Assembly: GCA_041674705.1 (NCBI GenBank)
Contig: JBAYVF010000001.1
Span: forward strand, 65,238 to 129,237
Direction: 5' to 3'
DNA from: Candidatus Omnitrophota bacterium
GTDB taxonomy: Bacteria > Omnitrophota > Omnitrophia > Omnitrophales > Aquincolibacteriaceae
DNA: 64,000 nucleotides
A program made the translations under genes and the position numbers. Shown here in pieces: positions 8,053 through 28,912 of this stretch (its first letter is position 1; every line of letters begins with the position of its first letter). The notes beneath the pieces were generated by a model. It searched no databases. It had not been told where the DNA came from and worked only from the letters and a program-made list of their open reading frames with translations.

Positions 8053-8116
8053 CGGATAGCGCAGAGCGTGGAGAGAATAGAAAAAACTCTACGCTAAACG
8101 CTCCCCGCTGTACGCT
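8051..8116. repeat. Word-hairpin element (AGCGCAGAGCG family), argB|argD junction
   Basis: agcggatagcgcagagcgtggagag ... ctctacgctaaacgctccccgctgtacgct. Same word family as 7123-7191. Confidence 0.75.
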
Positions 8117-8123
8117 AAAAATT

Positions 8124-9317
8124 ATGAAAACAGCCGACGTTCAAAAATTGTACGAACAATACGTGATGCCGACCTACACCCGGGTGCCGGTGTGCCTGGT
8201 CAAAGGGAAAGGCACGCGTGTCTGGGACCTTGAAGGAAAAGAGTATCTCGATTTCTTCCCCGGCTGGGCGGTTTCCGGGATCGGCCACTGCCATCCGGTC
8301 GTGGTGAACGCGATCAAGGAGCAGGCGAAAAAGATCCTCCATATCTCGAATAATTTTTTTAATATCAAGCAGGCCGAGCTCGCGAAGACCATTTCCGAGG
8401 CGTCTTTTCCGTCGCGCGTGTTTTTCTGTAATAGCGGCGCCGAGGCGAACGAAGGCGCGATCAAATTCGCCAAAAAGTACGGGAACGAGACCGGACGCTT
8501 TGAGATCATCACCATGAAGAATTCTTTTCACGGGAGAACGCTTGCCGCGATGAGAGCCACGGGACAGGAGAAATTCCACCAGGGTTTTCAGCCGCTCATG
8601 GAAAAATTCCTCCACGCGGATTTCAACGACCTGGAGTCGGTCAAAAAACTTGTGACCGACAAAACGATCGCGATCATGCTGGAGCCGATCCAGGGAGAAG
8701 GCGGGGTCTCCGTGGCGACCCAGGAGTTTCTCCGGGGCCTGCGGAAGCTTTGCGATGAAAAAGACATGCTTCTCATCCTGGATGAAGTGCAGACCGGCGT
8801 GGGCCGCACGGGAAAAATGTTCGCGTACCAGCATTACGATCTCGAACCGGATATCATGACGCTCGCCAAGACCTTGGGCGGCGGAGTTCCGATCGGAGCT
8901 TTTGTCGTGAACCGGAAGATCAAAAAAGAAGTGTTGACCACCGGCATGCACGGCTCAACTTTCGGCGGGAACCCGCTTGTGTGCGCGGCGAGCCTCGCGG
9001 TCTTCAAGGCGATCAAAAAAGAAAAGTTGCTCACGAACACGATTCGCATGGGAGAACTTCTCGAACAGGAATTCCAGAAGCTCAAAGCAAAATATCCCGT
9101 GATCGAAAGCACGCGGGGCATTGGGCTCATGCGGGGCCTGAAGCTCAAGGAGCCCTCCGCGCCTTACGCGGATGAAGCGCGCGCTCAAGGGTTTCTTATC
9201 AACGCGACGCAAGGCGATATCCTGAGGATCATGCCTCCGATGACGGTTTCAGTTAAAGAGATCAAACTCGGTATGAAGATTTTAGACCGTGTGTTCGCGA
9301 AATTAATGAAGAAATAA
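8124..9317 (+). CDS. argD: Acetylornithine aminotransferase (class III PLP aminotransferase)
   Basis: 397-aa ORF with NSGAEANEGAIKFA, LILDEVQTGVGRTGKMFA and TLAKTLGGGVPIGA (PLP-lysine region). Arg operon context. Confidence 0.9.
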   Translation: MKTADVQKLYEQYVMPTYTRVPVCLVKGKGTRVWDLEGKEYLDFFPGWAVSGIGHCHPVVVNAIKEQAKKILHISNNFFNIKQAELAKTISEASFPSRVFFCNSGAEANEGAIKFAKKYGNETGRFEIITMKNSFHGRTLAAMRATGQEKFHQGFQPLMEKFLHADFNDLESVKKLVTDKTIAIMLEPIQGEGGVSVATQEFLRGLRKLCDEKDMLLILDEVQTGVGRTGKMFAYQHYDLEPDIMTLAKTLGGGVPIGAFVVNRKIKKEVLTTGMHGSTFGGNPLVCAASLAVFKAIKKEKLLTNTIRMGELLEQEFQKLKAKYPVIESTRGIGLMRGLKLKEPSAPYADEARAQGFLINATQGDILRIMPPMTVSVKEIKLGMKILDRVFAKLMKK

Positions 9318-14470: not shown

Positions 14471-14668
14471 TTATCCGATCCATTTCTTCGCGACACACTC
14501 AGCAGGCGGGCGGCTTTCTATCTCGGCAAGGCGGTCGAGGGCTTTACGGATTTTTTTTCCAGCACGGGGGAATAGCTTCCGGCGCGCTTTCTTACGAAAC
14601 TGAAGACGACGGTATTTTTGTTCTTCCTGATTGAACTGCTCGATCAACTCATCGTTCCGTTCTAACAT
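14471..14668 (-). CDS. Small basic hypothetical protein
   Basis: 65-aa ORF directly downstream of, and co-directional with, the RhuM/Doc gene. No recognisable motif. Confidence 0.3.
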   Translation of the reverse strand: MLERNDELIEQFNQEEQKYRRLQFRKKARRKLFPRAGKKIRKALDRLAEIESRPPAECVAKKWIG

Positions 14669-14685
14669 TCGCCCGCTCCTTATCT

Positions 14686-15660
14686 CTAAACCAGAAGGTT
14701 CAGGATCACCTTGATCATGGAGTCTTTTTCAGGGGGACGGCTTGCCGCGATCATCAGGGTAAGAGCTACGAGAGCGGTATCGTCGATACGCTTGCTCCCG
14801 TCTTTCCGGGTCAAAAGGCCGTTCTCTTCAAGGAAACAAATAAAAACCGCCGCCGCAATACGCTTATTGCCGTCGACAAAGCTGTGATTTTTGGTGACAA
14901 AATACAGCAGGTGAGCCGCCTTCTCCTGAACGGTCGAATAAAGCTCCTTTTTCCCGAAGGTCTGGTAAACGGTGCCGATGGAGCTTTTAAATCCCTGATC
15001 CCTCTCTTGGCCCATCAAGGCAGAACCCCCGAATTTGCGTTTTAAGCTCTCAATGATCTCGCGGGCCCTTTCATAGGTGAGCCGGTATTTTTCCTTTCGC
15101 GAGCCGGGAGGGACGCGAAGACGTTCGTGGTCAAAATCATCCAGAACGTCCAATGCGCGGGCATACTCCGCGATGACGCGGGCGATCCCCCGAGTTTCAA
15201 CCGAAAGTTCTTCGATCTGGAAAACGTTACCGACCAAGGCGACGGCTTTTTGCAGCTCGCGATATTTGATCTGGTCTGTTTTTAAGCGCTTGTCGTTGAT
15301 CGTGTAGCCGTCCACGAGGTGTTTCTTAAGAACGTTTGTGGCCCAGATGCGGAAACGAGTAGCTTTCGCAGAATTGACCCGATAGCCAACCGAAATGATC
15401 GCATCCAGATTGTAAAACCTGGTTTTATAAACTTTTCCGTCTCTGGCAGTATGTTCCAAAATGGAACATACTGAACGCTTGTCTAATTCATTAGAGCTAA
15501 AGATATTAGATAAATGCTTGGTCATTGCCGGTCTTTGCGTCCCAAATAGGGAAGCCATCTGCTCCTGAGTGAGCCATACCGTATCTCTTTCAAGACGGAC
15601 CTCGATACGGTCTTTATATAAAACGATGTTGCCTTGTTGAATTGCAGTCTGTTCTCTCAT
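14686..15660 (-). CDS. RhuM-family protein with C-terminal Doc-type Fic domain (putative toxin)
   Basis: The N-terminal half (WLTQEQMASLFGTQRPAMTKHLSNIF ... YNLDAIISVGYRVNSAKATRFRIWAT) is typical of RhuM. The C-terminus carries HSFVDGNKRIAAA, the Doc variant of the Fic motif (HxFxDGNKR). Confidence 0.75.
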   Translation of the reverse strand: MREQTAIQQGNIVLYKDRIEVRLERDTVWLTQEQMASLFGTQRPAMTKHLSNIFSSNELDKRSVCSILEHTARDGKVYKTRFYNLDAIISVGYRVNSAKATRFRIWATNVLKKHLVDGYTINDKRLKTDQIKYRELQKAVALVGNVFQIEELSVETRGIARVIAEYARALDVLDDFDHERLRVPPGSRKEKYRLTYERAREIIESLKRKFGGSALMGQERDQGFKSSIGTVYQTFGKKELYSTVQEKAAHLLYFVTKNHSFVDGNKRIAAAVFICFLEENGLLTRKDGSKRIDDTALVALTLMIAASRPPEKDSMIKVILNLLV

Positions 15661-15665
15661 AAGGA

Positions 15666-15890
15666 TTAGGCCTTTTTTTGTTTTTTGGAGACTTTGCGGC
15701 TGATCTTGCGGGCCTCGTACAGGGTCTCCGGCTCGCTGATCTTGCTGGAGGCCATCATCTGGTTCATCCTGTCCATGAGCAGGGTCTTTTGAAAAATAGC
15801 TTGTCTCGCGACTTCGGACCAGTTGATCTCCTTAAAACGGTCCATCTTCGCTTTCAGTTCTACCGGTATCGAAAGTGTCATGTTGGGCAT
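15666..15890 (-). CDS. Putative ribbon-helix-helix-like antitoxin
   Basis: 74 aa starting at MPNMTLSIPVELKAKMDRF. AGGAG lies 6 nt upstream of this ATG. The gene ends 5 nt before the Doc-type gene, giving the classical antitoxin-toxin order. Confidence 0.5.
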   Translation of the reverse strand: MPNMTLSIPVELKAKMDRFKEINWSEVARQAIFQKTLLMDRMNQMMASSKISEPETLYEARKISRKVSKKQKKA

Positions 15891-16030
15891 AATTTTCTCC
15901 TTTTTCTGATATAAGTATACTATGTGGATGCACATAATACAAGTAAATAGCCAATAGCCTACAGATCTTAGTCTCCAGCTATAAGCTCTGGGCTATATGC
16001 GAGAGGCCTTTTCTGGTAAAATTCCTCTCG

Positions 16031-17035
16031 ATGGCGAACGCACCCGTTTCTTCCGTTTATAAAGAGCTTGTCACCGAGATCGCCACGCTTTACGAAGGCG
16101 CCAGAAGAGCTCTTGTAGAAGCTTATTGGAAAATAGGCCAGAGGATCGTCCAGGTCGAACAGCAAGGCGCGATCAAAGCTGCCTACGGCGCCGGCCTCCT
16201 TTCAAAGCTCTCCCAGGATCTCGCCAAACAATGCGGTCAGGGTTTTTCCGAATCGAATCTGCGGCGCATGCGGCAATTTTACCTGGCCCATCCAAAACAA
16301 CCGCCGGCGGTTGAATTAAGCTGGACCCAATACGCCGAACTTCTGCCGATCGGGGACGCGGTTAAGCGAGAGCGGTTTGTTCAGAAGGCTATCCGGGAGG
16401 AGCTGGATGGAAAAACCCTTCGCAGGCTCGTTCACGCCGAACTGGTCCGGGAGCAAGTAGCTCAAAACCTTGAAAAACGGGACTCGGGACTAGGGACTCG
16501 TATAACGAGCAACGAATCACGAGGGGCGAGTCCCGAGGAACAAGTCCCGGATCTTTTGGCAGAGCCCAAAGACCTCACGCTCCGCACGTACCGGAAAGGG
16601 GAAGTCTCGTCCGTTCCCGGCCACACGCTTGATTGCGGGTTTTATGTTTACCGGGAAGTCACAAAGACCCAATATGAAAGCGTCACGGTCACAGACAAAC
16701 CCTCGTATGCTTACGAAGCCACGGTGGAACGCGTGATCGATGGCGACACGCTCTGGGCCGTGATCGACATAGGCTTCGGTACCCAGGTCCGCGAAAAACT
16801 CCGACTCCGGGGGATCGATTGCCCCGAACTCGGCAGTCCGGAGGGAGAAAAAGCAAAACGATTTGTTACAGGCCTTTTACCCGCTGGCTCTAAGATCCTC
16901 CTCAAAACCACCCGGTCGGATGATAAATATGGCCGCTATGTTGCTGACGTATACTACACGGATAAAGACGATAGGCAGCGATACCTGAATAACCTGCTTC
17001 TTGAGGCTGGATTAGCTGTTCGCATGTACGAATAG
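16031..17035 (+). CDS. DUF1016_N (YhcG N-terminal) domain fused to a staphylococcal-nuclease-like (SNase) domain
   Basis: The N-terminus (LVEAYWKIGQRIV ... YGAGLLSKLSQDLAKQCGQGFSESNLRRMRQFY) matches the YhcG/DUF1016 N-domain pattern. The C-terminus (VIDGDTLWAVID ... LRLRGIDCPE ... DKYGRYVADVY) matches the thermonuclease pattern. Confidence 0.65.
   Translation: MANAPVSSVYKELVTEIATLYEGARRALVEAYWKIGQRIVQVEQQGAIKAAYGAGLLSKLSQDLAKQCGQGFSESNLRRMRQFYLAHPKQPPAVELSWTQYAELLPIGDAVKRERFVQKAIREELDGKTLRRLVHAELVREQVAQNLEKRDSGLGTRITSNESRGASPEEQVPDLLAEPKDLTLRTYRKGEVSSVPGHTLDCGFYVYREVTKTQYESVTVTDKPSYAYEATVERVIDGDTLWAVIDIGFGTQVREKLRLRGIDCPELGSPEGEKAKRFVTGLLPAGSKILLKTTRSDDKYGRYVADVYYTDKDDRQRYLNNLLLEAGLAVRMYE
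16479..16550. repeat. Word hairpin (GGGACTC family) embedded in-frame between the two domains
   Basis: gggactcgggactagggactcg ... cgagtcccgaggaacaagtcccgg. It has the same architecture as the intergenic word hairpins and encodes DSGLGTRITSNESRGASPEEQVP. Confidence 0.7.
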
Positions 17036-17097
17036 CCTTACAATTAAATATAAAAAAACCTTACAACTACCTTGCCAGGCAATTTTCTGGATGCCGT

Positions 17098-17400
17098 GTG
17101 ATCGATGGCGACACGCTCTGGGCCGTGATCGACATAGGCTTCGGCACCCAGGTCCGCGAAAAGCTCCGCCTCCGGGGCCTCGACACCCCCGAACTTGGCA
17201 GTCCGGAGGGAGAAAAAGCAAAACGATTTGTTATAGGCCTTTTACCCGCTGGCTCTAAGATCCTCCTCAAGACCACTCGGTCGGATGATAAATATGGCCG
17301 CTATGTTGCTGACGTATACTACACGGATAAAGACGGCAAGGAACAATACCTCAATAACCTTCTGCTTCAAGAAGGCCTTGCGGTTTTAGTCAGCTCGTAG
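17098..17400 (+). CDS. Truncated tandem duplicate of the SNase module (possibly a gene remnant)
   Basis: About 300 nt nearly identical to 16735-17035. GTG start, and it lacks the residues preceding VIDGDT. It keeps RLRGLDTPE (canonical D-T-P-E), whereas the upstream copy has IDCPE. Confidence 0.45.
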   Translation: MIDGDTLWAVIDIGFGTQVREKLRLRGLDTPELGSPEGEKAKRFVIGLLPAGSKILLKTTRSDDKYGRYVADVYYTDKDGKEQYLNNLLLQEGLAVLVSS

Positions 17401-17504
17401 GACGTAGCCCCAGGATTCACCCCCGGAATCAATCCATTCAAATTTGTAACATGTTTAAAACAAACAACTTGCGACAAAAATACAACTAAAAGTATGTAAA
17501 ATAC

Positions 17505-17533
17505 TTGAAAATACAACTTTTAAGGTGTATTAT
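17505..17533 (+). promoter_or_regulatory. Putative sigma70 promoter of the HTH gene / island operon
   Basis: TTGAAA (17505-17510), 17-nt spacer, TATTAT (17528-17533), within an AT-rich tract. Confidence 0.4.
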
Positions 17534-17598: not shown

Positions 17599-18210
17599 AT
17601 GGGAAGTTCCTGGCTCTGGAATGTCAATAAAACGGAAGAAGAAGCGAAGCGGATCCTCGCGGACCCCACGGATGAGCGTTTCGTCCATTATGCGGCGCTA
17701 CTGCTTTCGCGGCATTCAGGCCTGCCCAAGGAGATATTCAGTGAATATCTCAGCAAGGAACATTTCTGCCGTCGCTGGCTTGAGATCAAAAGGAAGATGC
17801 GCAAGGACGACTGGAACGACCAGCGCATTCCGTTCTGGGACGAGATCTACAAACGTCTGATCGTGGATTTCAAAAAGAAAGGGATCGTATTCCGGAGTCC
17901 TAAAAAGGAAGCCCTGAAAAATCCAGGCTTGGAAAAGATGGCGGCGGATATCCGTTCGAGACGTAAAGCCGCCCAATTGACCCAGACCGAGCTCGCGAAA
18001 AAAATGGGGGTTAAGCAGCAGTTCATTGCCAAGATCGAGAGCGGGACCCAGAATTTGTCGCCGCGGACCCTCGAGAAGATCAAAAAGATATTCGGGCTTT
18101 CTTTGTTTGGATCTGCGGCAGGGGCGCGTGATATTTCAGCCCGCCCTGTCTCAGAGACCGTTACGATATTGCATCCTTTAGAACCCGGCATGCGGACCGA
18201 GAGCAAGTAA
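17599..18210 (+). CDS. XRE-family helix-turn-helix protein with uncharacterised N-terminal domain
   Basis: HTH segment IRSRRKAAQLTQTELAKKMGVKQQFIAKIESGTQNLSPRTLEKIKKIF. The start is set at the ATG at 17599 (AGGAGG upstream), because the ORF-track TTG at 17533 overlaps the -10 box. Confidence 0.65.
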   Translation: MGSSWLWNVNKTEEEAKRILADPTDERFVHYAALLLSRHSGLPKEIFSEYLSKEHFCRRWLEIKRKMRKDDWNDQRIPFWDEIYKRLIVDFKKKGIVFRSPKKEALKNPGLEKMAADIRSRRKAAQLTQTELAKKMGVKQQFIAKIESGTQNLSPRTLEKIKKIFGLSLFGSAAGARDISARPVSETVTILHPLEPGMRTESK

Positions 18211-18341
18211 AACCCGGCGCAATATTGAACTGTAACAGACTATTGAAAATCGAAGCGGACAGAAGCGAAACCGGGTCTTTGTTTTCAAAGAGTATCTGAA
18301 TTTGTTTTGAGAAATAGAAGCAGTGTACGGGACCGTATCGT

Positions 18342-18368
18342 GTGAGCCCAAAGTAGCCGTTCCCACGG
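18342..18368. repeat. Island junction motif, copy A
   Basis: gtgagcccaaagtagccgttcccacgg. Near-identical to part of copy B. Lies about 80 nt upstream of the 18447 ORF. Confidence 0.6.
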
Positions 18369-18446
18369 CAGCGAAGCAGCGCTGTGGTGTACCCGGTACC
18401 ATTCAACAAGCTGAGAGGCTTTACGAGTTAAAGCAGAGGAAAGATT

Positions 18447-19412
18447 ATGGCAAAAATTGATGATTATAAGAAAATACTTCAGCGGCAACAGGAGCGGATA
18501 GAAGATGTAAAAAAGAAACCGAGATTTTCCCCAGATTTTAAGAAATGGCGCAGAGATACCGAAGTGGCCATTGAAAAAATATTCGGGGAAGAGACCCGAA
18601 ATATAAAAGATTTTAGGCAAGTAGGATATAGCCGCGTCGTTTCTTCAATGTATACTACGGAAGCAGAATACGATGAGGCCTTTTTAAAGGGATTGGATAG
18701 CGCGTCTGCAATTTTGCAATCTTTGATTGATGAACTTGCTGACTATGGTCTCAAAGAAATATCTAAAAGTGTTTCTAATTCTCCTGGGAAAGGCGTGAAT
18801 AGGCCAATACTGGAAAGTCATTTAAAGAGCATTACTCTAAGGCAGTTGCTCGAAATGCTACCTCGTCTTAGCCTTGGAGCAATAATATTGTTACTGGGAA
18901 TAATAGCATTTATTTTTGGGGCCGGATACAAAACGCATAGCGCTGTTATTTCTTTATCATTGAAGAATACGCCTAAGGAAATTGGCGCATCACGGCAAAT
19001 GGACCCAAATTTTCAGAGACCTTTAGAATCAATTAATGAGTTTAAAAAAGAAACCTCTCCGAATCGAGATAAAAGCAGAAATGCCCTCATGCTCAAGAGT
19101 TTAGTCAATGAAAGTGGTGAGATTTCCAAAAAGGGAAGAGGTGTTTTTGAAAGTTATGAGGCTTGGAGAGAAAAAACATTTACAGTATTGAAGAGCATCG
19201 ATGCCGAAGAGGCCAGCCATTTTTTTGAGGTGACAAAATTCAATGAAAAATATAACGACAGCATGCCATTCGTTATTAGAGAGCATTTAAAAGATGGGGA
19301 CGCTATAAAATTAATGGGAAAAGGCAACGCGGTTTTGTCCGGTTTGATTTTAGCTGCCGATGGTGAGACGGTACTTGGTATCTCGGGGGCACGTAAGGTG
19401 AGCCAAAGGTAG
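18447..19412 (+). CDS. Hypothetical protein with a central transmembrane helix
   Basis: 321 aa, with AGAGGAAAG upstream. The hydrophobic segment LSLGAIILLLGIIAFIFGAGY separates two soluble domains. I recognise no family. Confidence 0.5.
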   Translation: MAKIDDYKKILQRQQERIEDVKKKPRFSPDFKKWRRDTEVAIEKIFGEETRNIKDFRQVGYSRVVSSMYTTEAEYDEAFLKGLDSASAILQSLIDELADYGLKEISKSVSNSPGKGVNRPILESHLKSITLRQLLEMLPRLSLGAIILLLGIIAFIFGAGYKTHSAVISLSLKNTPKEIGASRQMDPNFQRPLESINEFKKETSPNRDKSRNALMLKSLVNESGEISKKGRGVFESYEAWREKTFTVLKSIDAEEASHFFEVTKFNEKYNDSMPFVIREHLKDGDAIKLMGKGNAVLSGLILAADGETVLGISGARKVSQR

Positions 19413-19424
19413 CCGTTCTCACGG
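19376..19424. repeat. Island junction motif, copy B (composite)
   Basis: tggtatctcggggg (shared with copy C) followed by gtgagccaaaggtagccgttctcacgg (shared with copy A). It overlaps the last codons and the stop of the 18447 ORF. Confidence 0.6.
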
Positions 19425-19466
19425 TATCCATTATCTTTCGACTTTATCGAACAAATAAAGGCTTTT

Positions 19467-20699
19467 ATGAAAAATCCAAAAAGTTTTGAGACGGCTTGCG
19501 GAGATTATTCTGTTGTCTCTGTGATTGGGGAAGGCGGGGCCGGGCGTGTTTTTTTGGTTCGAGATCATAGTGGCAAGGAAATGGCCCTCAAATGTCTTTA
19601 TCCAGAACTGATAACGACGGAAAGGCGAAAAAGATTCAAAAATGAAATTGATTTTTGTCAAAGAGAGTGCCATGAAAATTTAATTCGAGTTATTGATTCT
19701 GGATTAATGATTTGCGCCGATGGAAAGACTCCTTTTTACGTCATGCCATTTTTCCCAATGACCCTTCGTGCATTAATAGAGAAGCGGATACCTTCTGATA
19801 AGGTGTTGCCGATTTTTAATCAAATTTTAAATGGAGTGGAGGCTGCTCATCTCCTCGGAGTCACTCATAGAGATCTTAAGCCTGAAAATATTCTGTATGA
19901 TCCTAACCGAGATTTGATAGTCGTTGCTGATTTTGGCATTGCTCATTTCGAAGAGGATGTTCTTGCTACCACAGTGGAAACACAGCCTGCTTCGAAAATG
20001 GCAAATTTTTCTTATGCAGCACCCGAACAACGCAGCAAGGGAAGCAATGTGGATCTCCGAGTTGACATCTATGCGCTTGGGCTTATTCTCAATGAAATGT
20101 TTACGACAAAGGTGCCGCATGGAACGGGATATCAGAAAATCGAAACCGTTGCCCCAAGTTATACATATTTAGACTCATTGATTGAGATCATGATTCAACA
20201 ATCTCCCGGTGCTCGCCCCTCAAATATCGAAGATATTAAGAAGGGGTTAATTGGACGAAAGAATTCGTTCGTAGTGCTGCAACATCTCGACGCCAAAAAG
20301 CACGAAGTCGTGCTAGCCAGCACACCGCAACAATTTACTCCCATAAAACTGAAAGGAGTTGATTGGAGCAAAGGGATGCTTTTGTTTGAGTTAGATCAGG
20401 TCCCTCCCAGGAAATGGATCGAGCTATTTCAGAATCCGTCCGGCTATAGTGCGATATATGGGTACGGGCCTTCGGCAATTGGATTTCAGAAAAACACAGC
20501 GATGATACGCATTGAAGAACGATTAGCCCAACAGATTGTAAATCACTTTAAGGAATATTTGAATTCAGCCAATCGAGAGTACCAGAAGCACCTTTCTACC
20601 GAAGCAGCGCAGCGAGAATTAGAGCAACGCCGCCAACTTGAACAGGAAATAGCGGAAGCCGAAACAAGAGGGCGGATTTTGAAAAATGTGAAGATCTAA
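19467..20699 (+). CDS. Hanks-type serine/threonine protein kinase with uncharacterised C-terminal domain
   Basis: Glycine loop IGEGGAGRVF, ALK lysine, catalytic loop HRDLKPENIL, DFGIA, and the APE region (YAAPEQ). The C-terminal ~140 aa and the coiled-coil tail are unassigned. Confidence 0.85.
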   Translation: MKNPKSFETACGDYSVVSVIGEGGAGRVFLVRDHSGKEMALKCLYPELITTERRKRFKNEIDFCQRECHENLIRVIDSGLMICADGKTPFYVMPFFPMTLRALIEKRIPSDKVLPIFNQILNGVEAAHLLGVTHRDLKPENILYDPNRDLIVVADFGIAHFEEDVLATTVETQPASKMANFSYAAPEQRSKGSNVDLRVDIYALGLILNEMFTTKVPHGTGYQKIETVAPSYTYLDSLIEIMIQQSPGARPSNIEDIKKGLIGRKNSFVVLQHLDAKKHEVVLASTPQQFTPIKLKGVDWSKGMLLFELDQVPPRKWIELFQNPSGYSAIYGYGPSAIGFQKNTAMIRIEERLAQQIVNHFKEYLNSANREYQKHLSTEAAQRELEQRRQLEQEIAEAETRGRILKNVKI

Positions 20700-20729
20700 C
20701 ATGTATCGACAGTGTCGATAGGTGACACC

Positions 20730-20759
20730 TGGTATCTCGGGGACAGGTTCGTGAAAGCG
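20730..20759. repeat. Island junction motif, copy C
   Basis: tggtatctcggggacaggttcgtgaaagcg, lying 11 nt upstream of the 20770 start. Preceded by the palindrome tatcgaca-g-tgtcgata (20704-20720). Confidence 0.6.
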
Positions 20760-20769
20760 AGAGAGCAAT

Positions 20770-21480
20770 ATGGATAAAGTTTGGGTGGAGCTATTTTTCT
20801 CTTCGTTGTGCGTTTCACTAAAAAATGCACCCATTTGGTTTCTCTCCGCAATTCTTAAGCCTGCCTATGACGCAATTATTGCGCCTAAGGAGGTTTTTTG
20901 GACAGCAATGTCAACAATTGGAACCCTCTTTCTCGCGGTAGTTGCTTTATGGAAAGAAAATATGCATCGTCAGCCAGAATTAGTTCTTGAACCGGAAAAT
21001 ATGGAAGGTGTAAGTGCCCCGTTGCGAGCGCCAAGCGGGCAAATGATAGCTTCATGTTATTACCACCTCCGCGTCAAAAACCTAAAGCCGAAGGTGCTAG
21101 CTAAAAATGTTCGTATTCTTGTTAAACAAGTTCAGCTTACGAATCCTGGTGCTGTTCGAGAATTACACCCGCCCCGTCAATTGACATGGGCGCCTGCAGA
21201 GTTGGGTGAATTAGCTCCAAGTTTTTCTCGCGAAAGGACAGTGGATCTGATTTGCGTAACAAGAACAAATGCTCAAGTAGTTCTGGTTAGCGCAGCGTTT
21301 TCAGGTGAGCACATTATTGATTGGGGGAGAGACGCTACAATTTTATTGGAGGTGGTTGCTGATAATTTCTCAAAACCAAGATTTTATAGACTAATATGCA
21401 AATGGCTTGCGCCCAGACCTCCTGCAACTTTTGATGTAAATCCGCGAAATTGCTTAAGTTTAGAGTTAACATCAGCGTAA
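20770..21480 (+). CDS. Hypothetical membrane-anchored protein
   Basis: 236 aa with two N-terminal hydrophobic segments (VELFFSSLCVSL..., AMSTIGTLFLAVVALW) followed by a beta-rich soluble domain. No family recognised. Confidence 0.45.
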   Translation: MDKVWVELFFSSLCVSLKNAPIWFLSAILKPAYDAIIAPKEVFWTAMSTIGTLFLAVVALWKENMHRQPELVLEPENMEGVSAPLRAPSGQMIASCYYHLRVKNLKPKVLAKNVRILVKQVQLTNPGAVRELHPPRQLTWAPAELGELAPSFSRERTVDLICVTRTNAQVVLVSAAFSGEHIIDWGRDATILLEVVADNFSKPRFYRLICKWLAPRPPATFDVNPRNCLSLELTSA

Positions 21481-21542
21481 TAGCGCGATGTAGACAGCGC
21501 GAATGAACGAATGATTTAAATAGAGGCAATGCCGATTTTCTC

Positions 21543-22892
21543 ATGAATACTTCCAAGATTATTTACGCGAAAGGGCTGAAGTGCTTTTTAAAAAAACGCA
21601 CCGGAAAGAATTTTGACGAAATGCAGCAGTTGTTAGGATTTCTTAGAGATACGTTGCCTCATGCTCAATTTAGCAAGTGGAAAAGGAAATCATCTGATGA
21701 AGAGGCTGGAGCAAACCTGAAAGGCGGGAGCGACAATAAGCAAATTAATATCAGGGTGAGATTTGATGATGCGTGGCTATTAATGGCTACCCTAACTAAG
21801 GGGAGAGCTTTTGGGGTTTATGAGAGACAATATATAAATGTTGCGGTGCAGCAAATAAGCCTGACGATTAAGAGCTTATCAAACGCTGCATCGACTTTAT
21901 TTGTAAGTGACGTCTCAAGAATTTACGATTTAATCACTTCTGAATTCCTTAAAATCTTAACAAAAATTCCACAAGTAAATTATCTAGAAATATTGAATTT
22001 TTATAAAGATTTAGCGCAACAATCTTATGAATCAAACGCGATATCTTACGGCATTATTGTAACCGAAAAGCTAGCTAGGAAAAAGAAAGCGGCGATTTTC
22101 CCAAAAGATATTATGGGAGAGAAAAGGTTTCAATCAATCACGGATGGGTACAGCACGGTTCTATACATAGACAGTATTGGCAAAATCGTGCGCTTAGCAG
22201 GGCTCAAACAAAAGAAGGAAACAAGAGAAAGAGAGCATTTTTGTCCGCTCTGGCTCATGCCTCTTGCGAGCATGTGTGATCACGACAGAGAATTGGGGAT
22301 CGCGCTTTCTAGGAATGGCGCAATATTAATAACTTGGCGCGGAAATTTAATAATGTCCAATCGAGCAAGCAAGTGGACTTTGTGGAACCACGATGAAAAC
22401 GTTGAAATAATAAAAGAGAATTTGGCAGCGCAAGGGACAAAGCCAAAAGATCTGGGTAGGATGGCCGCGAGGCTTTATCGAGTAGCTTTGGATATTGCAT
22501 TCAAGAGAAGCGGAGGTTTGTTTGTTGTGTTGAGAACAAGAGGAAATATTTCCCAGTTGGTCTCTTATCCAGAACAATTGCTTGGGAAAAGACGAACCAA
22601 AGGCGACCTGGCTTTAGGCGAATGGCTCCACGAAAAAACCATAGTTGGAATTGAAAGAGAAACCCTTTCTGATTTGGCAGCATTAGATGGCGCGGTTGTT
22701 TGTGCGAGGAACGGGAAAATTTTAGCATATGGGTCAGTGCTTAAGATTCCGAGGAAAACAGGTCTTGGCAAAATAGAGGGATCAAGATCTCGAGCTGCGC
22801 ATTCAGCAAGTTACTTCGGACTCAGCATTAAGATATCCTCTGATGGCGAGATAAAGGTGTCGAGACGAGGAAAGGCGTGTTTGATTGTATAA
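21543..22892 (+). CDS. Protein with a C-terminal diadenylate-cyclase-like (DisA_N/CdaA-like) domain
   Basis: The C-terminal ~130 aa align by eye to CdaA. RSGGLFVVL corresponds to KIGALIVI. LDGAVVCARNGKILAYG corresponds to LHDGAVIMKNNEIAAA. GSRSRAAHSAS corresponds to GTRHRAAVGIS. IKISSDGEIKV corresponds to IIVSEETGGVSV. The N-terminal ~300 aa are unassigned. Confidence 0.5.
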   Translation: MNTSKIIYAKGLKCFLKKRTGKNFDEMQQLLGFLRDTLPHAQFSKWKRKSSDEEAGANLKGGSDNKQINIRVRFDDAWLLMATLTKGRAFGVYERQYINVAVQQISLTIKSLSNAASTLFVSDVSRIYDLITSEFLKILTKIPQVNYLEILNFYKDLAQQSYESNAISYGIIVTEKLARKKKAAIFPKDIMGEKRFQSITDGYSTVLYIDSIGKIVRLAGLKQKKETREREHFCPLWLMPLASMCDHDRELGIALSRNGAILITWRGNLIMSNRASKWTLWNHDENVEIIKENLAAQGTKPKDLGRMAARLYRVALDIAFKRSGGLFVVLRTRGNISQLVSYPEQLLGKRRTKGDLALGEWLHEKTIVGIERETLSDLAALDGAVVCARNGKILAYGSVLKIPRKTGLGKIEGSRSRAAHSASYFGLSIKISSDGEIKVSRRGKACLIV

Positions 22893-22902
22893 AAACGTTG
22901 TT

Positions 22903-22926
22903 GGGTAGCCTGGCTCGTGAAAGTAG
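22903..22926. repeat. Island junction motif, copy D (degenerate)
   Basis: gggtagcctggctcgtgaaagtag. It shares GTAGCC with copies A and B, and CGTGAAAG with copies C and E. Confidence 0.45.
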
Positions 22927-22953
22927 TTTCAAATTATCTTTTAAGGAGGACGC

Positions 22954-23262
22954 ATGAATTTGCAAGAATTTGTGAAAGATGTATTAGTGAGCCTTGATAA
23001 AGGTGTGAATGAAGCTCGGACAGAAATGAGCCGTGATATTCACTTTACTTATAGCCAGGATCAGCGAACCGTTGAGTTCGATATAGCGGTATCCGTAGAA
23101 GAAACTAATTTGCAAAGTGGTAAAGCGGGAATTCGTGTGTTGCAATTTGCTGAAGGCGGAGGGGAGCTAGGTAAAGAGAACAAGAATGCCAGTATTAGCA
23201 GAATTCGATTTGGTGTTAATATTGACATCTTGACGAAGCAAGAAAGCAACCGTCGGCATTGA
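22954..23262 (+). CDS. Small protein resembling the trypco2 (trypsin-co-occurring 2) adaptor domain
   Basis: 102 aa with AAGGAGG upstream. The pattern is an N-terminal helix, then VEFDIAVSVEE...GKAGIRVLQFAEGGGELG...SRIRFGVNI. This is like the helix plus beta-meander pattern I recall for trypco2 proteins. Confidence 0.4.
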   Translation: MNLQEFVKDVLVSLDKGVNEARTEMSRDIHFTYSQDQRTVEFDIAVSVEETNLQSGKAGIRVLQFAEGGGELGKENKNASISRIRFGVNIDILTKQESNRRH

Positions 23263-23270
23263 TAAAAAAT

Positions 23271-23289
23271 GGGCAGGTTTGTGAAAGCG
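23271..23289. repeat. Island junction motif, copy E
   Basis: gggcaggtttgtgaaagcg, lying 11 nt upstream of the 23300 start. It matches the 3' half of copy C. Confidence 0.55.
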
Positions 23290-23299
23290 GGTTGAATTT

Positions 23300-23647
23300 A
23301 TGAGTGAGATAAAAGCGCTGACGGAAAAGATCAAGAAGTTTCGGGATGAGCGGGACTGGATGCAGTTCCACAATCACAAGGACGTAGCCTTGTCCCTGGT
23401 CCTGGAGGCCGCGGAGGTGCTTGAGCACTTCCAGTGGAAGAAGCCCGGGGAAGTCGAAGCCCATGGGAAAGCCTGTAAGGATGAGATCGCCGATGAGCTT
23501 GCCGATGTAGCGATGTACCTGTTTGAATTGGCCGACAACCTTGGCATTGATCTCGCTAAAGCCATCGACGTCAAACTCGCCAAGAACGCCGCCAAATACC
23601 CCATCGCAAAAGCCAAAGGCAAACATACCAAGTACGACAAACTATAA
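23300..23647 (+). CDS. All-alpha MazG-like NTP pyrophosphohydrolase (DCTPP1 / RS21-C6-like)
   Basis: FRDERDWMQFHNHKDVALSLVLEAAEVLEHFQWK ... EIADELADVAMYLFELADNLGIDL ... KNAAKYP closely follows the RS21-C6/DCTPP1 core pattern (ERDWxQFH ... E..EL.E.FQWK ... EL.DV..YL). Confidence 0.75.
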   Translation: MSEIKALTEKIKKFRDERDWMQFHNHKDVALSLVLEAAEVLEHFQWKKPGEVEAHGKACKDEIADELADVAMYLFELADNLGIDLAKAIDVKLAKNAAKYPIAKAKGKHTKYDKL

Positions 23648-23683
23648 GTAAATGTACCGGCTATGTCGGTTTTTGAATACAAT

Positions 23684-23715
23684 GGCCATCGGCATTCGAT
23701 GGCCTTTTTATTTTT
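23684..23715 (+). terminator. Rho-independent terminator closing the six-gene operon
   Basis: Stem ggccatcg / cgatggcc with a 5-nt loop, followed by tttttatttttg. Confidence 0.75.
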
Positions 23716-23833
23716 GTTGGCTACAATAATGACAGAATTGGGTCGAAATGCATGGGGGATTTGCGATTTGTCCAGGGTCTATGCGAATTTTCAACACTAT
23801 CTTTTTAAATAAAGCAGTAAGAGGGAAAACGCC

Positions 23834-24814
23834 ATGAAATTAACTTTCATCGATCTCTTTGCAGGCATAGGCGGATTTAGATCCGCATTAGAAAGTTTTG
23901 GAGCGAAATGTGTTTTCAGCTCGGAATGGGATAAATACGCTGCAAAGACATACAAAGAAAACTTCGGCGAAGAGCCCGCGGGGGACATTACCAAGATTAA
24001 AGCGGAAAACATGCCTAAGCACAATATTCTCTGCGGGGGATTCCCCTGTCAAGCATTTAGCATATCTGGAAAACAGCACGGTTTTAGCGATGCGAGAGGG
24101 ACGCTTTTTTTTGACGTGGCTCGCATAGCTGATTTTCATAAGCCAGAAGTTCTTTTTTTAGAAAATGTAAAAAACCTGGTTAAACATGACGATGGGAAAA
24201 CGCTCAAGACCATATACCGTATTTTAGACGAGATTGGATATGATGTTTTTCACGATGTTTTGAACGCCAGTTATTTTGGCGTACCACAGAAGCGAGAAAG
24301 GGTCTATTTTGTTTGCTTCCGGAAAAATTTAAAAATCAAAAACTTCGAATTCCCAAAGCCTACTTATACTTTAGTTAGTTTAAAAGATATTGCGGAGCCA
24401 GAGGCGGCAACCAAAGATTTCCATCTTTTGCGCGACGATATCAAGCTTGCTAAAAAAGCAATCTCCCAAAGGATGTTGCTCAACCCAAATCCTTGCCGTC
24501 CGATCAGGGTTGGCATAATTAACAAAGGTGGCCAGGGGGAGAGGATATATTCTGAAGAGGGGCACGCTATAACATTGTCGGCTTATGGTGGCGGGGCGGC
24601 TGGAAAAACAGGAGCCTATTTGATAAACGGGCATATTCGTCAACTAACGCCAAGGGAATGCTTAAGAGTTCTTGGTTTCCAAGAGGCATTCCATTTTCCA
24701 AAGGGCACAACAACTCATCAAGCATACAAGCAGTGTGGGAATAGCGTGGTCGTCCCAGTAATAAAAAAAATCTTTGGAAAGGTGCAAGCCGTATTAGAAA
24801 AATCATCTTTATGA
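23834..24814 (+). CDS. dcm: DNA (cytosine-5)-methyltransferase
   Basis: Motif I DLFAGIGGF, motif IV GGFPCQAFS, motif VI ENV, QKRERV, and motif X QCGNSV. Confidence 0.92.
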   Translation: MKLTFIDLFAGIGGFRSALESFGAKCVFSSEWDKYAAKTYKENFGEEPAGDITKIKAENMPKHNILCGGFPCQAFSISGKQHGFSDARGTLFFDVARIADFHKPEVLFLENVKNLVKHDDGKTLKTIYRILDEIGYDVFHDVLNASYFGVPQKRERVYFVCFRKNLKIKNFEFPKPTYTLVSLKDIAEPEAATKDFHLLRDDIKLAKKAISQRMLLNPNPCRPIRVGIINKGGQGERIYSEEGHAITLSAYGGGAAGKTGAYLINGHIRQLTPRECLRVLGFQEAFHFPKGTTTHQAYKQCGNSVVVPVIKKIFGKVQAVLEKSSL

Positions 24815-24836
24815 GCTATGGGAAAAAAGGAGCTAC

Positions 24837-25595
24837 ATGTCGAAAAAACAGGATCTAATTTCCTTAGGTTCGAGGACGGCAAGAAATGGTTTTCGAAACG
24901 AAGATGATATTGTCAAAAAATTTCACAGCTGGAAAAGCGATGCCGATTCTCAAACATGGCTAGTTATTATGGGGTATGCGTTAAAGCAAATTGAGAAGGT
25001 GGAAGCGTGTAAGTTGCATGGATTCAAGACGGACGTTCAGATAAAAATTACAATTTACATGAAAGAGGGCGTGGCAGCGGAGAACCTTTCAATAAAACTT
25101 GTTAGTAACCCTGCGGGGTTTAATCAGGTGGATAAGCGATGGGTGGATCAATATGCTCTCTTGTGGGATATTCCGCCCGAGGTCATCGAAGCCCTAAAGC
25201 TTTTTACCGGAGAAATCGCGCCTCTCCCCGGGAGACAGCTTCGAGATGGTCGAAGAATGTTTTTTGATGAATTGGATGCTGAGGCTCAGAGGAAAGTCGT
25301 TTCTTTTTTTACGCAAAACAAAATATTAGTTGTTTCAGATATACTTAGGGGGCGTGGGCCTTTTTCAGCTGGGTGGATGCTGGTTGCATTAAAGGCTGAT
25401 AGCAAAAGTAAATGGGAATTAAAATCGATAAATCAGGCTATGAACGTTTTCGCCGCTGGAGATGTCGAGATTTCGCCTCGAGGTAGTTTAAAAATTGGCA
25501 AGATTGGTATGCAGCGAAAAGGAGGCGACGGGGGGCGGAGAACAGCTCAAATGTTGCAGTTTAAGATAAATCCCGTTGAGCTTTTTGGTGATTAA
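24837..25595 (+). CDS. Type II restriction endonuclease, MspI/HinP1I-like (specificity possibly CCGG, unverified)
   Basis: Sits between the m5C methyltransferase and vsr. FKTDVQIKITIY...LSIKLV resembles the MspI catalytic KTD-x17/18-(N/S)IK arrangement, and MLQFK near the C-terminus resembles the MspI C-terminus as I recall it. Confidence 0.55.
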   Translation: MSKKQDLISLGSRTARNGFRNEDDIVKKFHSWKSDADSQTWLVIMGYALKQIEKVEACKLHGFKTDVQIKITIYMKEGVAAENLSIKLVSNPAGFNQVDKRWVDQYALLWDIPPEVIEALKLFTGEIAPLPGRQLRDGRRMFFDELDAEAQRKVVSFFTQNKILVVSDILRGRGPFSAGWMLVALKADSKSKWELKSINQAMNVFAAGDVEISPRGSLKIGKIGMQRKGGDGGRRTAQMLQFKINPVELFGD

Positions 25596-25597
25596 AT

Positions 25598-26026
25598 ATG
25601 TCTGATGTTGTGAGCGAGAAAAAGAGAAGCGAAATAATGCGCGCTGTTAAAAGCCGTGGCACGAAATTAGAGGTTGGCTTTGGACGCAAGCTTCGGGAAA
25701 TTGGAATTAAGTTCAGAAGGAATGTAAAAAGTTGTTTTGGGAAACCTGATTTTGCGAATAAAAAAAACAAAATGGCAATTTTTATCGACTCATGTTTTTG
25801 GCATGGCTGTCGTTTCCATTGCAGAATGCCAAAGTCTCATGCTCGTTATTGGAATCAAAAAATAGAGAGAAACAAGGAGCGTGACAGACAAGTTGTCGAA
25901 TGGTATCAGCGGCACGAGTGGCATTTATTTCGTTTTTGGGAACATAGTTTGAAAGTCGATGTGGACAAATGTCTTTCGAAAATTAAAAAAAACATGAAAA
26001 CAAAGTTAGTTTTAAAAGATATCTAG
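25598..26026 (+). CDS. vsr: Very-short-patch repair endonuclease
   Basis: SEIMRAVKSRGTKLE, GKPDFANKKNKMAIFIDSCFWHGC and RYWNQKIERNKERD are typical Vsr motifs. Starts 2 nt after the endonuclease stop. Confidence 0.9.
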   Translation: MSDVVSEKKRSEIMRAVKSRGTKLEVGFGRKLREIGIKFRRNVKSCFGKPDFANKKNKMAIFIDSCFWHGCRFHCRMPKSHARYWNQKIERNKERDRQVVEWYQRHEWHLFRFWEHSLKVDVDKCLSKIKKNMKTKLVLKDI

Positions 26027-26048
26027 CGAAACGGTGCCGGGCATAAAA

Positions 26049-26126
26049 GGGACAGGTTAAAACGGCTTTCTTTTGTTGGTTTTTGCTATATTCACTTTTG
26101 ATTAACCGAGCCGTTAATAGTGTCCC
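26049..26126. repeat. Inverted repeat at the right end of the AT-rich block (junction-motif-like, copy F)
   Basis: gggacaggttaaaacggc (26049-26066) and gccgttaatagtgtccc (26110-26126) are imperfectly complementary. The left arm resembles copy C (ggggacaggttcgtgaaagcg). Confidence 0.55.
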
Positions 26127-26129
26127 ATT

Positions 26130-26218
26130 ACAGACTGTAGACCAAAGACTGCAGACGGCAGACTATAGCTCTTAGCTTATAGCCTACAGCCAACAGCCCG
26201 CAGACAGCAGCCCGCAGT
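26130..26218. repeat. Word-repeat element (CAGAC/CTACAG family)
   Basis: cagactgtagaccaaagactgcagacggcagactatagc ... gcttatagcctacagccaacagcccgcagacagcagcccgcag. Related in word content to 52373-52445. Confidence 0.6.
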
Positions 26219-26339: not shown

Positions 26340-27194
26340 ATGGAAGACCGCACCGAAAGCAATCTCACTCCTAATTCCAATCCATTTATCACAAAGGAGA
26401 TTGGGACCACCCCCGCCGGCCATTCCGGAAATGAAAACAAAGACGGGGGAGGGCTCAATTTCCTCAAAAACACTCAGATCATCATCCTCGGGCTTTGTAT
26501 CGCCGGGGCCACGATCGGGGCCAGTCTCATTTTTTCGAAGGGCTTTTTGTCCGTCACAAAATTCATGCGGGAGCAGATCACGGTGACGGGGTCGGCGCAG
26601 AAGAATATCAAAAGTGATTATGCGGTATGGATCGGGACTTTCGCGAGGCGCGAGATCCTGATGGCGGACGCTTACAAGAAGCTCGGAGAGGATCTGGGAA
26701 AGGTTCAAAAATATCTGACGGGGCAAGGGATCCCCGGACAGGACATCCTCATCAACCAGATCGAGACGGAAACAGTTTATAAGAAGAACGAGAAGGGCAA
26801 CGACACGAACACGATCGAAGGGTATCGTCTGAAGCAGTTCGTGGAACTTCGCTCGAATGATGTCGATAAGATCGCCCGGATCTCCCGGGAAGCTACGGAT
26901 CTGATCAACGAGGGGATCGAATTCTACTCCGGGAGCCCCGAGTATTCCTACACCAAGCTGGATGAGCTGAAGGTGGAGATGCTTGCCAAGGCCACCGAGA
27001 ACGCAAAGCTCCGGGCGGACAACATGGTTAAAGCTACGGGCAACAAGATCGGATTCATGCGCTCGGCCAAGATGGGTGTGTTTCAGATCACGCCGGTCAA
27101 TTCCACCGAGATCTCCGATTGGGGCGTGAACGACACAAGCTCGCTTGAGAAAAAAGTTACCGCCGTCGTCAACGCCAGTTTTTCCATCGAGTAG
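26340..27194 (+). CDS. SIMPL-domain (DUF541-like) protein
   Basis: 284 aa with an N-terminal TM segment. The C-terminal half (AKATENAKLRADNMVKATGNKIGFMRSAKMGVFQITP) resembles SIMPL/BP26-type proteins. Confidence 0.5.
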   Translation: MEDRTESNLTPNSNPFITKEIGTTPAGHSGNENKDGGGLNFLKNTQIIILGLCIAGATIGASLIFSKGFLSVTKFMREQITVTGSAQKNIKSDYAVWIGTFARREILMADAYKKLGEDLGKVQKYLTGQGIPGQDILINQIETETVYKKNEKGNDTNTIEGYRLKQFVELRSNDVDKIARISREATDLINEGIEFYSGSPEYSYTKLDELKVEMLAKATENAKLRADNMVKATGNKIGFMRSAKMGVFQITPVNSTEISDWGVNDTSSLEKKVTAVVNASFSIE

Positions 27195-27907: not shown

Positions 27908-28912
27908 ATGGAGACACCCTGTTACAGGATCACGAATCGCCTTTTGACTCTTCTGGAGAAGATCGCGGCCCTTGCTTCCCGGATATCCGAAAGCCGTCTT
28001 AAACTCCCGGTCTGTCTTCATCTCGAACGGGAAGCGATCCGGAGGAACGCGCATTCCTCCACTTCGATCGAGGGGAACGAGCTCTCTTTAGGGCAGGTTG
28101 CGGATTTGAGTGAAAGAAAATCGGTCCAGGCCGACTCCCGCCAAAAGCGCGAGGTCGTTAATTACCTCAAGGCGCTCCGGTGGGTGATCCGTCAGAGCAG
28201 GAAGCCTCTGGATGAGAAAAAACTTTTGCGTCTTCATGTCCTGATCACAGAGGGATTGCTGGATAAGGCCAAGGCCGGACATTATAAGGTCAAACAAAAT
28301 TATGTTGTGAACGGCCGCGGGCGGGTGGTTTACACGCCGCAGACTCCCGCGGTGACGCCCCGATTCATGCGAAATCTCCTCGAGTGGACTAGAAAAAGCG
28401 GGACGGTCCATCCCGTGATCGTCAGCGCTATCTTCCATCACCGGCTTGTTTCGATCCATCCCTTCTCGGACGGGAACGGCCGCGTGGCGCGTGCCGGAGC
28501 GCAATGGATCCTTTACCAGCGGGGTTTTGACCCGGGACATTTTTACGCGCTGGACGATTTTTACGCGAAAGACCGGGACCGTTATTACGAGAAGATCCAG
28601 CAGGCGCGGGAACTCGACAATGATCTGACCTATTGGATCGAATATGTCGCCGAGGGGCTTCTGGCCGCTTGTGAAGATGTCTATGAACGGATCCGGGCCC
28701 TGTCGCGTTCCGTAAAGGAAAAGATCACAGTCACGCCGAAGCAGGAGTCTCTGCTTAAGCTGTTGCGCGGGCAGGGGGGGCTTGGATCAGCGGAACTGGG
28801 CCGGAAGCTCAAGATCAATCGCGCAAGGGTTCATCAGCTGACCGCGCCGCTTGTGAAAGCAGGGATCCTAAAACAGGAGGGCCGCGCCCGGGCCGTGCGG
28901 TATTATCTTTAG
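27908..28912 (+). CDS. Fic-family protein (AMPylase-type motif) with C-terminal winged-helix
   Basis: Canonical HPFSDGNGRVARA motif. The C-terminus (LLKLLRGQGGLGSAELGRKLKINRARVHQLTAPLVKAGILKQEG) looks like a wHTH. Confidence 0.85.
   Translation: METPCYRITNRLLTLLEKIAALASRISESRLKLPVCLHLEREAIRRNAHSSTSIEGNELSLGQVADLSERKSVQADSRQKREVVNYLKALRWVIRQSRKPLDEKKLLRLHVLITEGLLDKAKAGHYKVKQNYVVNGRGRVVYTPQTPAVTPRFMRNLLEWTRKSGTVHPVIVSAIFHHRLVSIHPFSDGNGRVARAGAQWILYQRGFDPGHFYALDDFYAKDRDRYYEKIQQARELDNDLTYWIEYVAEGLLAACEDVYERIRALSRSVKEKITVTPKQESLLKLLRGQGGLGSAELGRKLKINRARVHQLTAPLVKAGILKQEGRARAVRYYL

Follow-up and report, generated by a model that had tools for sequence, protein, structure and literature searches.

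Interleaved short repeats at the gene junctions of an AT-rich island in a Candidatus Omnitrophota genome

What do similar short sequences at the boundaries of successive genes stand for? The locus considered here lies in a 64,000-nucleotide stretch from a Candidatus Omnitrophota bacterium (assembly GCA_041674705.1, contig JBAYVF010000001.1, positions 65,238 to 129,237 of the forward strand), hereafter the window, whose first letter is position 1 in all coordinates below. A low-GC stretch (0.37–0.45, against surroundings of ~0.55) is inserted there among genes of arginine, lysine and diaminopimelate biosynthesis, with all relevant island genes on the + strand. An earlier note had described six related copies, A to F, of one 20–50 nt motif at the junctions of this island. 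We find three distinct short blocks instead of one motif—X, Y and Z, with two copies each in the window—and we lean, with about even confidence, towards reading them as traces of DNA inserted or recombined step by step into the leader of a MazG-like gene and not as a shared functional element.

Three repeat blocks at the island junctions

How are the blocks distributed over the genes? An XRE-type helix-turn-helix (HTH) gene (17599–18210) is followed by a first AT-rich block of five co-oriented genes (18447–23262; GC content at third codon positions, GC3, 0.34–0.40), comprising g1 (18447–19412), the PD-T4-6-like Ser/Thr kinase gene g2 (19467–20699), g3 (20770–21480), g4 (21543–22892) and g5 (22954–23262), and then by the MazG-like gene g6 (23300–23647). 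Copy A (18342–18368, GTGAGCCCAAAGTAGCCGTTCCCACGG) sits in the spacer between the HTH gene and g1, 79 nt 5′ of the g1 ATG, and represents the first copy of block Z (GTGAGCCmAArGTAGCCGTTCyCACGG). Copy B is composed of X, three nucleotides (AAG) and Z: its left part (19373–19394, ACTTGGTATCTCGGGGGCACGT), within the last codons of g1, is the first copy of block X (ACyTGGTATCTCGGGGrCAsGT), and its right part (19398–19424), 42–43 nt before the kinase ATG, is the second copy of Z and contains the g1 stop codon (TAG, 19410–19412), an overlap that had been reported correctly. Copy C begins with the second copy of X (20727–20748, ACCTGGTATCTCGGGGACAGGT), non-coding and 27 nt past the kinase stop, which overlaps by 9 nt (GGGACAGGT) with the first copy of block Y (GGG(A)CAGGTTyGTGAAAGCG; 20740–20759, GGGACAGGTTCGTGAAAGCG). 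Copy E, finally, is the second copy of Y together with the remainder of the native MazG-like 5′ leader (23271–23299, GGGCAGGTTTGTGAAAGCGGGTTGAATTT). The repeat pairs are thus on the same strand, occupy consecutive junctions, and abut or overlap within B and C. Y brackets g3–g5 (C, E), X brackets the kinase (B, C) and Z stands 5′ of both g1 and the kinase (A, B), with the X and Z pairs interleaved (Z...X Z...X).

Both C and E end 10 nt upstream of an ATG, as the earlier note had seen in placing them close before start codons, and the two 10-nt spacers are unrelated in sequence. For A, B and D, the corresponding distances are 79, 42–43 and 28 nt, respectively, and D has a separate AAGGAGG. X codes for the final codons of g1 in B, yet is non-coding in C; in the g1 frame, translation through the X and Y of copy C would stop within GTGAAAG, at its TGA, leaving 15 nt to the next ATG, a normal tight operon junction. 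A small open reading frame (ORF) across copy A (18323–18460) was dismissed, there being no matching ORF at B.

How far do these similarities exceed chance? Pairwise alignment of the junction regions, scored against shuffles, gave z = 10.5 for A versus the right part of B (24 of 27 positions identical), z = 5.7 for the left parts of B and C (19 of 22) and z = 5.2 for the right part of C versus E (23271–23289; 17 of 19 identical plus one gap, over 19–20 nt). In a family-wise test under stringent scoring (500 dinucleotide shuffles, ten island junctions, 45 same-strand pairs), the best scores of 39, 29 and 28 were attained in 0, 0.4% and 0% of the shuffles, while the fourth and fifth (23 and 22) fell within the null, so that copies D and F are unsupported. 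D (22903–22926) is Y-like, shares only TCGTGAAAG with copy C and is not separable from chance; F (26049–26066), between the stop codon of the Vsr gene and a conserved element upstream of the SIMPL gene, shares GGGACAGGTT with copy C and likewise lacks statistical support. The earlier note had placed its six copies, as well as an inverted partner of F, exactly as regards coordinates and sequence; A, B, C and E remain related in three pairs that beat shuffled controls (A~B, B~C, C~E), D and F do not, and a single motif in six copies was too generous a description. Searched as patterns across the window, Z and Y each returned two matches, where the shuffles led us to expect 0.00 in either case. 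None of the three blocks recurs in the other ~56 kb of the window, other gene starts included.

The leader of the MazG-like gene

Where does Y come from? We fetched 80 metagenome loci encoding relatives of the MazG-like protein. In one of them (L023, 86% protein identity), the 29-nt sequence directly 5′ of the start (GGGCGGGTTTGTGAAAGCGGATTAAAACT) is identical to E at 24 of 29 positions by hand count, and homology to the window ends exactly at GGG, with a truncated methyltransferase fragment further upstream in L023. Another (L013, 93%) retains ATGAAAGCGGGTTAAAACA next to a different gene on its left flank; both leaders keep the 10-nt spacing to the start seen in C and E. A weak version of the leader is retained in L022. 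The closest orthologue (L012, 95%) is without Y, and its homology to the window begins only at TTGAA, 2 nt past the end of the C~E similarity as judged by eye. The left edge of Y, also by eye, is the same in C versus E and in E versus L023, i.e., the breakpoints coincide. When a profile built from the relatives' leaders alone was searched in the window, E was the top match (E = 0.022), C came third (E = 3.6) and D was lost in noise. Since the leader is conserved in relatives and the profile ranks E first, Y belongs to the MazG-like leader; it is the resident leader, with sharp edges that recur as homology breakpoints.

The same comparison bears on the surroundings of the leader. In L013, an HTH homologue (46% identity) is linked to the MazG-like gene with three different genes in between, which is how a variable slot would look. 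Fuzzy X, Y and Z patterns scanned over 1.83 Mb of related loci found Y only in the L023 leader, plus chance matches within coding sequence (L032, L149). The exact Z pattern had no match in viral and genome contig collections, and that of Y had one viral match, inside a coding region and hence attributable to chance. Homologues of g3 (L003–L005) and of the kinase (L010, L172, L180; 58–69% identity) have no related flanks; the blocks do not move together with the genes beside which they stand. With SIMPL as a synteny anchor, close orthologues were found in differing neighbourhoods and an empty site was not recovered. The locus itself is base-for-base the same in independent assemblies (ENA, Logan), ruling out an assembly artefact.

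Proposed stepwise insertion and competing explanations

What kind of process leaves such a pattern? Imperfect direct repeats bracket DNA of foreign composition here, and the right copy of Y runs on into the conserved MazG-like leader, as befits an insertion footprint. The composition contrast is marked: GC3 is 0.58–0.78 in flanking host genes such as lysA and SIMPL, host-like in both the HTH (0.65) and the MazG-like gene (0.69), and low in the first AT-rich block and in a second one downstream (23834–26026; 0.39–0.41), leaving a host-like MazG-like gene between two AT-rich blocks. In the order of events that we infer, a host-like HTH gene would originally have been linked to a host-like MazG-like gene preceded by a leader with Y (GGGRCAGGTTYGTGAAAGCG), 10 nt and the ATG. 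Foreign, AT-rich defence genes would then have been spliced in just 5′ of the MazG-like gene in several steps, each copying a short sequence at the insertion point and so leaving an imperfect direct repeat around the insert, with B (X plus Z) and C (X plus Y) as chimeric joints. Given the interleaving of the X and Z pairs, the pattern cannot come from simple nested target-site duplications; Z-g1-X and Z-kinase-X must instead have been units with both ends in common that became linked head to tail. The recombination mechanism or enzyme could have been any of several: head-to-tail stacking of two Z-gene-X units, single-crossover integration of a circle via short homology, unequal or homology-facilitated illegitimate recombination among strains whose common slot holds different genes, or a site-specific enzyme. 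The Y copy before g3 probably also supplies the ribosome-binding region of that gene, a reuse that would explain the equal 10-nt spacing. Among the interpretations offered in the earlier note, it is this one—scars or sites of cassette-wise assembly—that we favour, in view of mosaic junctions with coinciding breakpoints, AT-rich inserts and a copy E that is the resident leader.

If true, this makes the locus a small, unusually legible record of gene-by-gene growth of a defence island in a poorly studied, uncultured phylum, in which every gene gained is marked by a short duplicated joint and a new gene came to use the leader of the resident one. The interval from the HTH to the MazG-like gene and the nearby 3′ end of an SNase gene would then be recurrent acquisition points in the lineage and a place for finding new defence genes. 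The process is of a known kind, and the locus exemplifies it legibly in a phylum that has seen little study; neither a new regulatory element nor a new regulatory RNA is involved, and a new recombination system would be at hand only if a cassette mechanism, discussed below, held.

Two known processes come close. In arrays grown by sequential displacement, such as the orphan immunity genes behind type VI secretion effector loci of Vibrio cholerae, recombination in a conserved neighbour, the anchor, brings in new modules, genes acquired earlier end up further downstream and the junctions keep short duplicated fragments of the anchor, all of which resembles the present locus. Here, however, the duplicates consist of a 5′ leader and the last codons of a gene and not of a large gene fragment, although a duplicated 291-nt SNase 3′ end is present just upstream of the locus. 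Campbell-type single crossover and homology-facilitated illegitimate recombination leave direct repeats of short homology on either side of an insert and need no dedicated recombinase. Unlike the products of such events, our repeats are very short (19–27 nt) and interleave, so that the donors must already have shared both ends.

Several observations weigh against an insertion history. The donor or unit with matching ends that the interleaving of X and Z calls for was not observed, nor was any intermediate arrangement of the blocks found, and the fact that C and E stand at the same 10-nt distance from their start codons could point to a selected function instead. The remaining ones are statistical. 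Each block has only two copies, all in one genome. Under permissive gap scoring, no junction pair is family-wise significant, and the extensions of homology past the cores (A~B, B~C, D~E) are individually non-significant (p = 0.03–0.6). The 13-mer common to B and C is unremarkable by itself (two occurrences window-wide, 1.48 expected), we estimate that matches like B~C and C~E would be expected a few times by chance across the window, and the significance of these two pairs arises because the test was restricted to junctions. Could the copies, then, be mostly chance plus selection by eye, with A~B the only real local duplication and the others coincidences in AT- or G-rich spacers? The ordinary 13-mer, D and F within the null, the permissive-scoring result and the third rank of C in the leader profile all favour such a view. 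Even so, the second- and third-best junction pairs were attained in at most 0.4% of shuffles under stringent scoring, the matches are same-strand, lie in consecutive junctions and abut or overlap in B and C, and the edges of Y coincide with independent breakpoints in L023 and L012. We therefore hold chance to be a quite improbable account of the whole.

Alternatively, the copies might be kept for a function in cis, Y being a reused initiation or leader element (g3, MazG-like) and Z a protein-binding or RNA element (g1, kinase). The exact 10-nt distance of C and E from the ATG despite unrelated spacers, repeated in L023 and L013, is in line with this idea. So is the fact that GAAAGCGGGT resembles an extended Shine-Dalgarno sequence (GAAAGGAGGT), a likeness that presumes the general form of the 16S rRNA 3′ end and may not hold for this organism. 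Z, moreover, has GTGAG...CTCAC ends. Against it, start-codon distances are not fixed across the copies, as they would be for a shared translational leader: the two Z copies stand 79 and 43 nt ahead of their genes, and D 28 nt upstream with its separate AAGGAGG. No copies precede other genes of the window, the closest MazG-like orthologue does without Y, and a conserved operator-like region 5′ of the HTH gene is unrelated to Z. Nor do the copies correspond to a known RNA family or to an evident RNA structure. Rfam gave no match in the window at the gathering score and none at the junctions at E ≤ 5, and none of seven junctions folds into anything more stable than its shuffles (z = −1.8 to +0.9). 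The cgu-GAAA-gcg hairpin that had been pointed out in C and E does exist as 3–4 bp; where copy C has a C-G pair, copy E has U.G, the hairpin is broken in L013 (CAU...GCG) and it can be followed in only 2–4 copies, within sequences that fold no better than shuffles. The common post-transcriptional or translational control element put forward in the earlier note thus finds no footing in Rfam, folding, start distances or further copies, and a cis function for the blocks seems to us unlikely. Processing sites, another possibility named there, gained no support.

Integron gene-cassette arrays, including attC clusters without an integrase, offer another comparison. The present locus likewise consists of closely spaced units of foreign composition, mostly of one gene each, that all point the same way and carry defence genes; its junctions are chimeric, joining left and right parts about a short core, and the array is explicable by repeated insertion at the upstream end. 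Unlike integrons, it has no IntI, no R″/R′ cores and no imperfect palindrome of 50–150 nt; its repeats measure 19–27 nt and occur twice each, with nothing comparable in relatives. When attC sites were defined as R″ and R′ cores 40–150 nt apart with complementary inner arms, no junction carried both R″ (RYYYAAC) and R′ (GTTRRRY) on one strand, and in a crude ungapped scan of the whole window no core pair reached 13/20 arm complementarity. One could still imagine an integron-like, non-integron cassette system, in which a recombinase acting in trans would cut a core of ~9–10 nt (GGGRCAGGT) and integrate circular cassettes of one gene each into the leftmost site, making A v.core.Z, B x.core.Z, C x.core.Y and E y.core.Y. 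By this reasoning, three sequential single-site insertions would reproduce the interleaved mosaic exactly, and the breakpoints do cluster at the core. The defence genes are co-oriented, mostly single-ORF units with short spacers (37–70 nt across g1–g6, all on the + strand), no terminator precedes 23684, and F carries the exact core at the right edge of the island. Yet no recombinase, integrase or transposase domain was found by Pfam in the 36 larger ORFs of the window (island, flanks and most of the remainder), canonical attC cores or pairing are absent from every junction, the 1.83 Mb of related genomes hold no other arrays or copies, and viral and genome collections hold no Z pattern. Kinase and g3 homologues elsewhere come without these ends; A shows the core weakly, and F lacks statistical significance. 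A search of the literature for integrons in Omnitrophota or similar junction repeats returned nothing directly relevant. We consider a cassette system of this sort unlikely, and its more specific form, an integrase-distant, non-attC system in Omnitrophota that would stack anti-phage cassettes at a ~10-nt core in the MazG-like leader, with X.core.Z as a cassette-borne site of ~50 nt and the recombinase elsewhere in the genome, doubtful even by comparison.

Might the blocks be decayed 3′ remnants of a tRNA-Ser gene, left by tandem island integration? Islands integrated in tandem at tRNA genes resemble our locus in having direct repeats (att) at successive junctions of foreign blocks, and related species have tRNA-Ser genes beside the SIMPL element: two of them (GGA and GCU) lie immediately 5′ of it in four species. 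Copy E also matches the variable arm of tRNA-Ser(GCU) at 13 of 14 positions (p < 0.003 before correction). However, a tRNA/tmRNA scan found neither kind of gene in the window, an integrase was not found, and no tRNA-like Rfam match appeared even at E ≤ 5. Only E resembles a tRNA-Ser arm, its best matches fall in different parts of two different tRNAs, and A, B, C, D and F have no significant tRNA match; the repeats are not convincingly tRNA-derived. This largely refutes the tRNA reading, to which we attach next to no probability. Insertion of a transposon or miniature inverted-repeat transposable element was rejected as well: by eye, the ends of the inserted blocks bear no inverted repeats, and the direct repeats are 19–27 nt long, of three different lengths, and interleaved, unlike the target-site duplications of one fixed, short length (2–15 bp) that such elements leave.

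Cargo and flanks of the island

Which genes make up the island? The protein encoded by g1 starts with a PDC-S35-like N-terminal domain, and its homologues cover only the first ~30–40% of the protein; no full-length homologue was found. Elsewhere, domains of this type are fused to PNP_UDP, a DpnII/MboI-type nuclease, TIR or PF10137, while the C-terminal part in g1 is unique and holds a hydrophobic stretch, by eye a membrane segment. In its domain architecture, g1 looks like a sensor domain with swappable effectors. No function was assigned to g3, g4 and g5: neither g3 nor g4 had a match in Pfam, PADLOC or NCBIfam, g4 had none among the chains of the PDB sequence set either, and g5 showed weak, sub-threshold similarity to Trypco2 (PF19631; E = 0.013, 16 bits against a cut-off of 24 bits). 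The only convincing terminator of the island (23684–23704) directly follows the MazG-like gene. Beyond it, the second AT-rich block encodes a C5 DNA methyltransferase (23834–24814), an endonuclease of the R.HinP1I family (24837–25595) and the mismatch endonuclease Vsr (25598–26026). Among the fetched loci, eight (L027, L028, L034, L040, L041, L043, L047, L055) have a gene of the MazG-like family next to a Vsr gene, and in seven of these there is a C5 cytosine methyltransferase as well. Hence, the MazG-like protein may belong functionally with the methyltransferase/Vsr module; we conjecture that it may clear 5-methyl-dCTP, a known activity of DCTPP1, which is a MazG-like enzyme.

Upstream of the HTH gene lies a DUF1016_N-SNase gene (16031–17035, + strand), a nuclease-domain gene of host-like composition. 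The last 291 nt of this gene (16730–17020) are repeated 365 nt downstream at 90% identity (17095–17385, + strand), yielding a free-standing fragment ORF of 100 amino acids (17098–17400); this copy looks like a gene end displaced by recombination or integration. In L023, a tandem repeat of ~200 nt (8811–9160) starts in the last SNase codons, and L013 has two short remnants of the SNase C-terminus between other genes (~6740–6810 and ~8030–8090). The remnants in relatives are junction scars of the same general kind as those in the island, in favour of an insertion history, and the SNase 3′ end seems to be a recurrent recombination point in the lineage. SNase and MazG-like genes are linked in the window, in L023 and in L043, and in L013 the SNase remnants lie 5′ of the MazG-like gene. 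Directly past the SNase stop, the window carries TTACAATTAAATATAAAAAAACCTTACAACTA (17037–17070); the same layout, with GTTTACAAT repeats around an A-run, recurs beside the SNase remnants in L013 (6880–6925 and 7960–8005), the first of these sites at p = 0.007 against the window and the second read by eye. Such an arrangement could be a candidate attachment or binding site. The spacer between the HTH gene and g1, compared with the sequences downstream of SNase in L023 and L013, showed no significant similarity.

A 40-nt sequence precedes the HTH gene within 17475–17525 (AATACAACTAAAAGTATGTAAAATACTTGAAAATACAACT, which includes a direct repeat of AAAATACAACT) and is 90% identical in L013 (5315–5365), although the HTH proteins share only 46% identity. 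It overlaps the best promoter-like site (TTGAAA-17-TATTAT, 17505–17533) and is probably the promoter and operator of the regulator itself. Further to the left, the − strand between lysA and the SNase gene (14471–15935) carries a gene with a RhuM/Fic domain, a small gene of the RHH type and an ORF of 65 aa, which together form a toxin-antitoxin-like module where the variable region begins on its left side. Another Fic gene is located at 27908–28912.

The first gene downstream of the island is SIMPL (26340–27194, + strand). The element upstream of it (26085–26127, + strand; GCTATATT...CCGTTAATAGTGTCCCA) is common to many related Omnitrophota genomes in the form GCTATATT...CCGTTAATAnTGkCCCA and is native flank outside the island. 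What had been read as an inverted partner of copy F (26107–26126) is part of this element and is thus also present in those relatives. Two further features are common to related Omnitrophota (L092–L107), namely a run of short repeats of the CAGAC/ACAGCC type after the element (26128–26210) and GGGGCAAyCCCGrGGAGGCAAG conserved just before the SIMPL ATG. The spacers 5′ of SNase (15947–15997) and of SIMPL (26160–26200), finally, share TAGCC..ATAGCCTACAG in direct and TATAGC...GCTTATAGC in inverted orientation, which may represent lineage-specific promoter-region repeats or the outer limits of the variable region.

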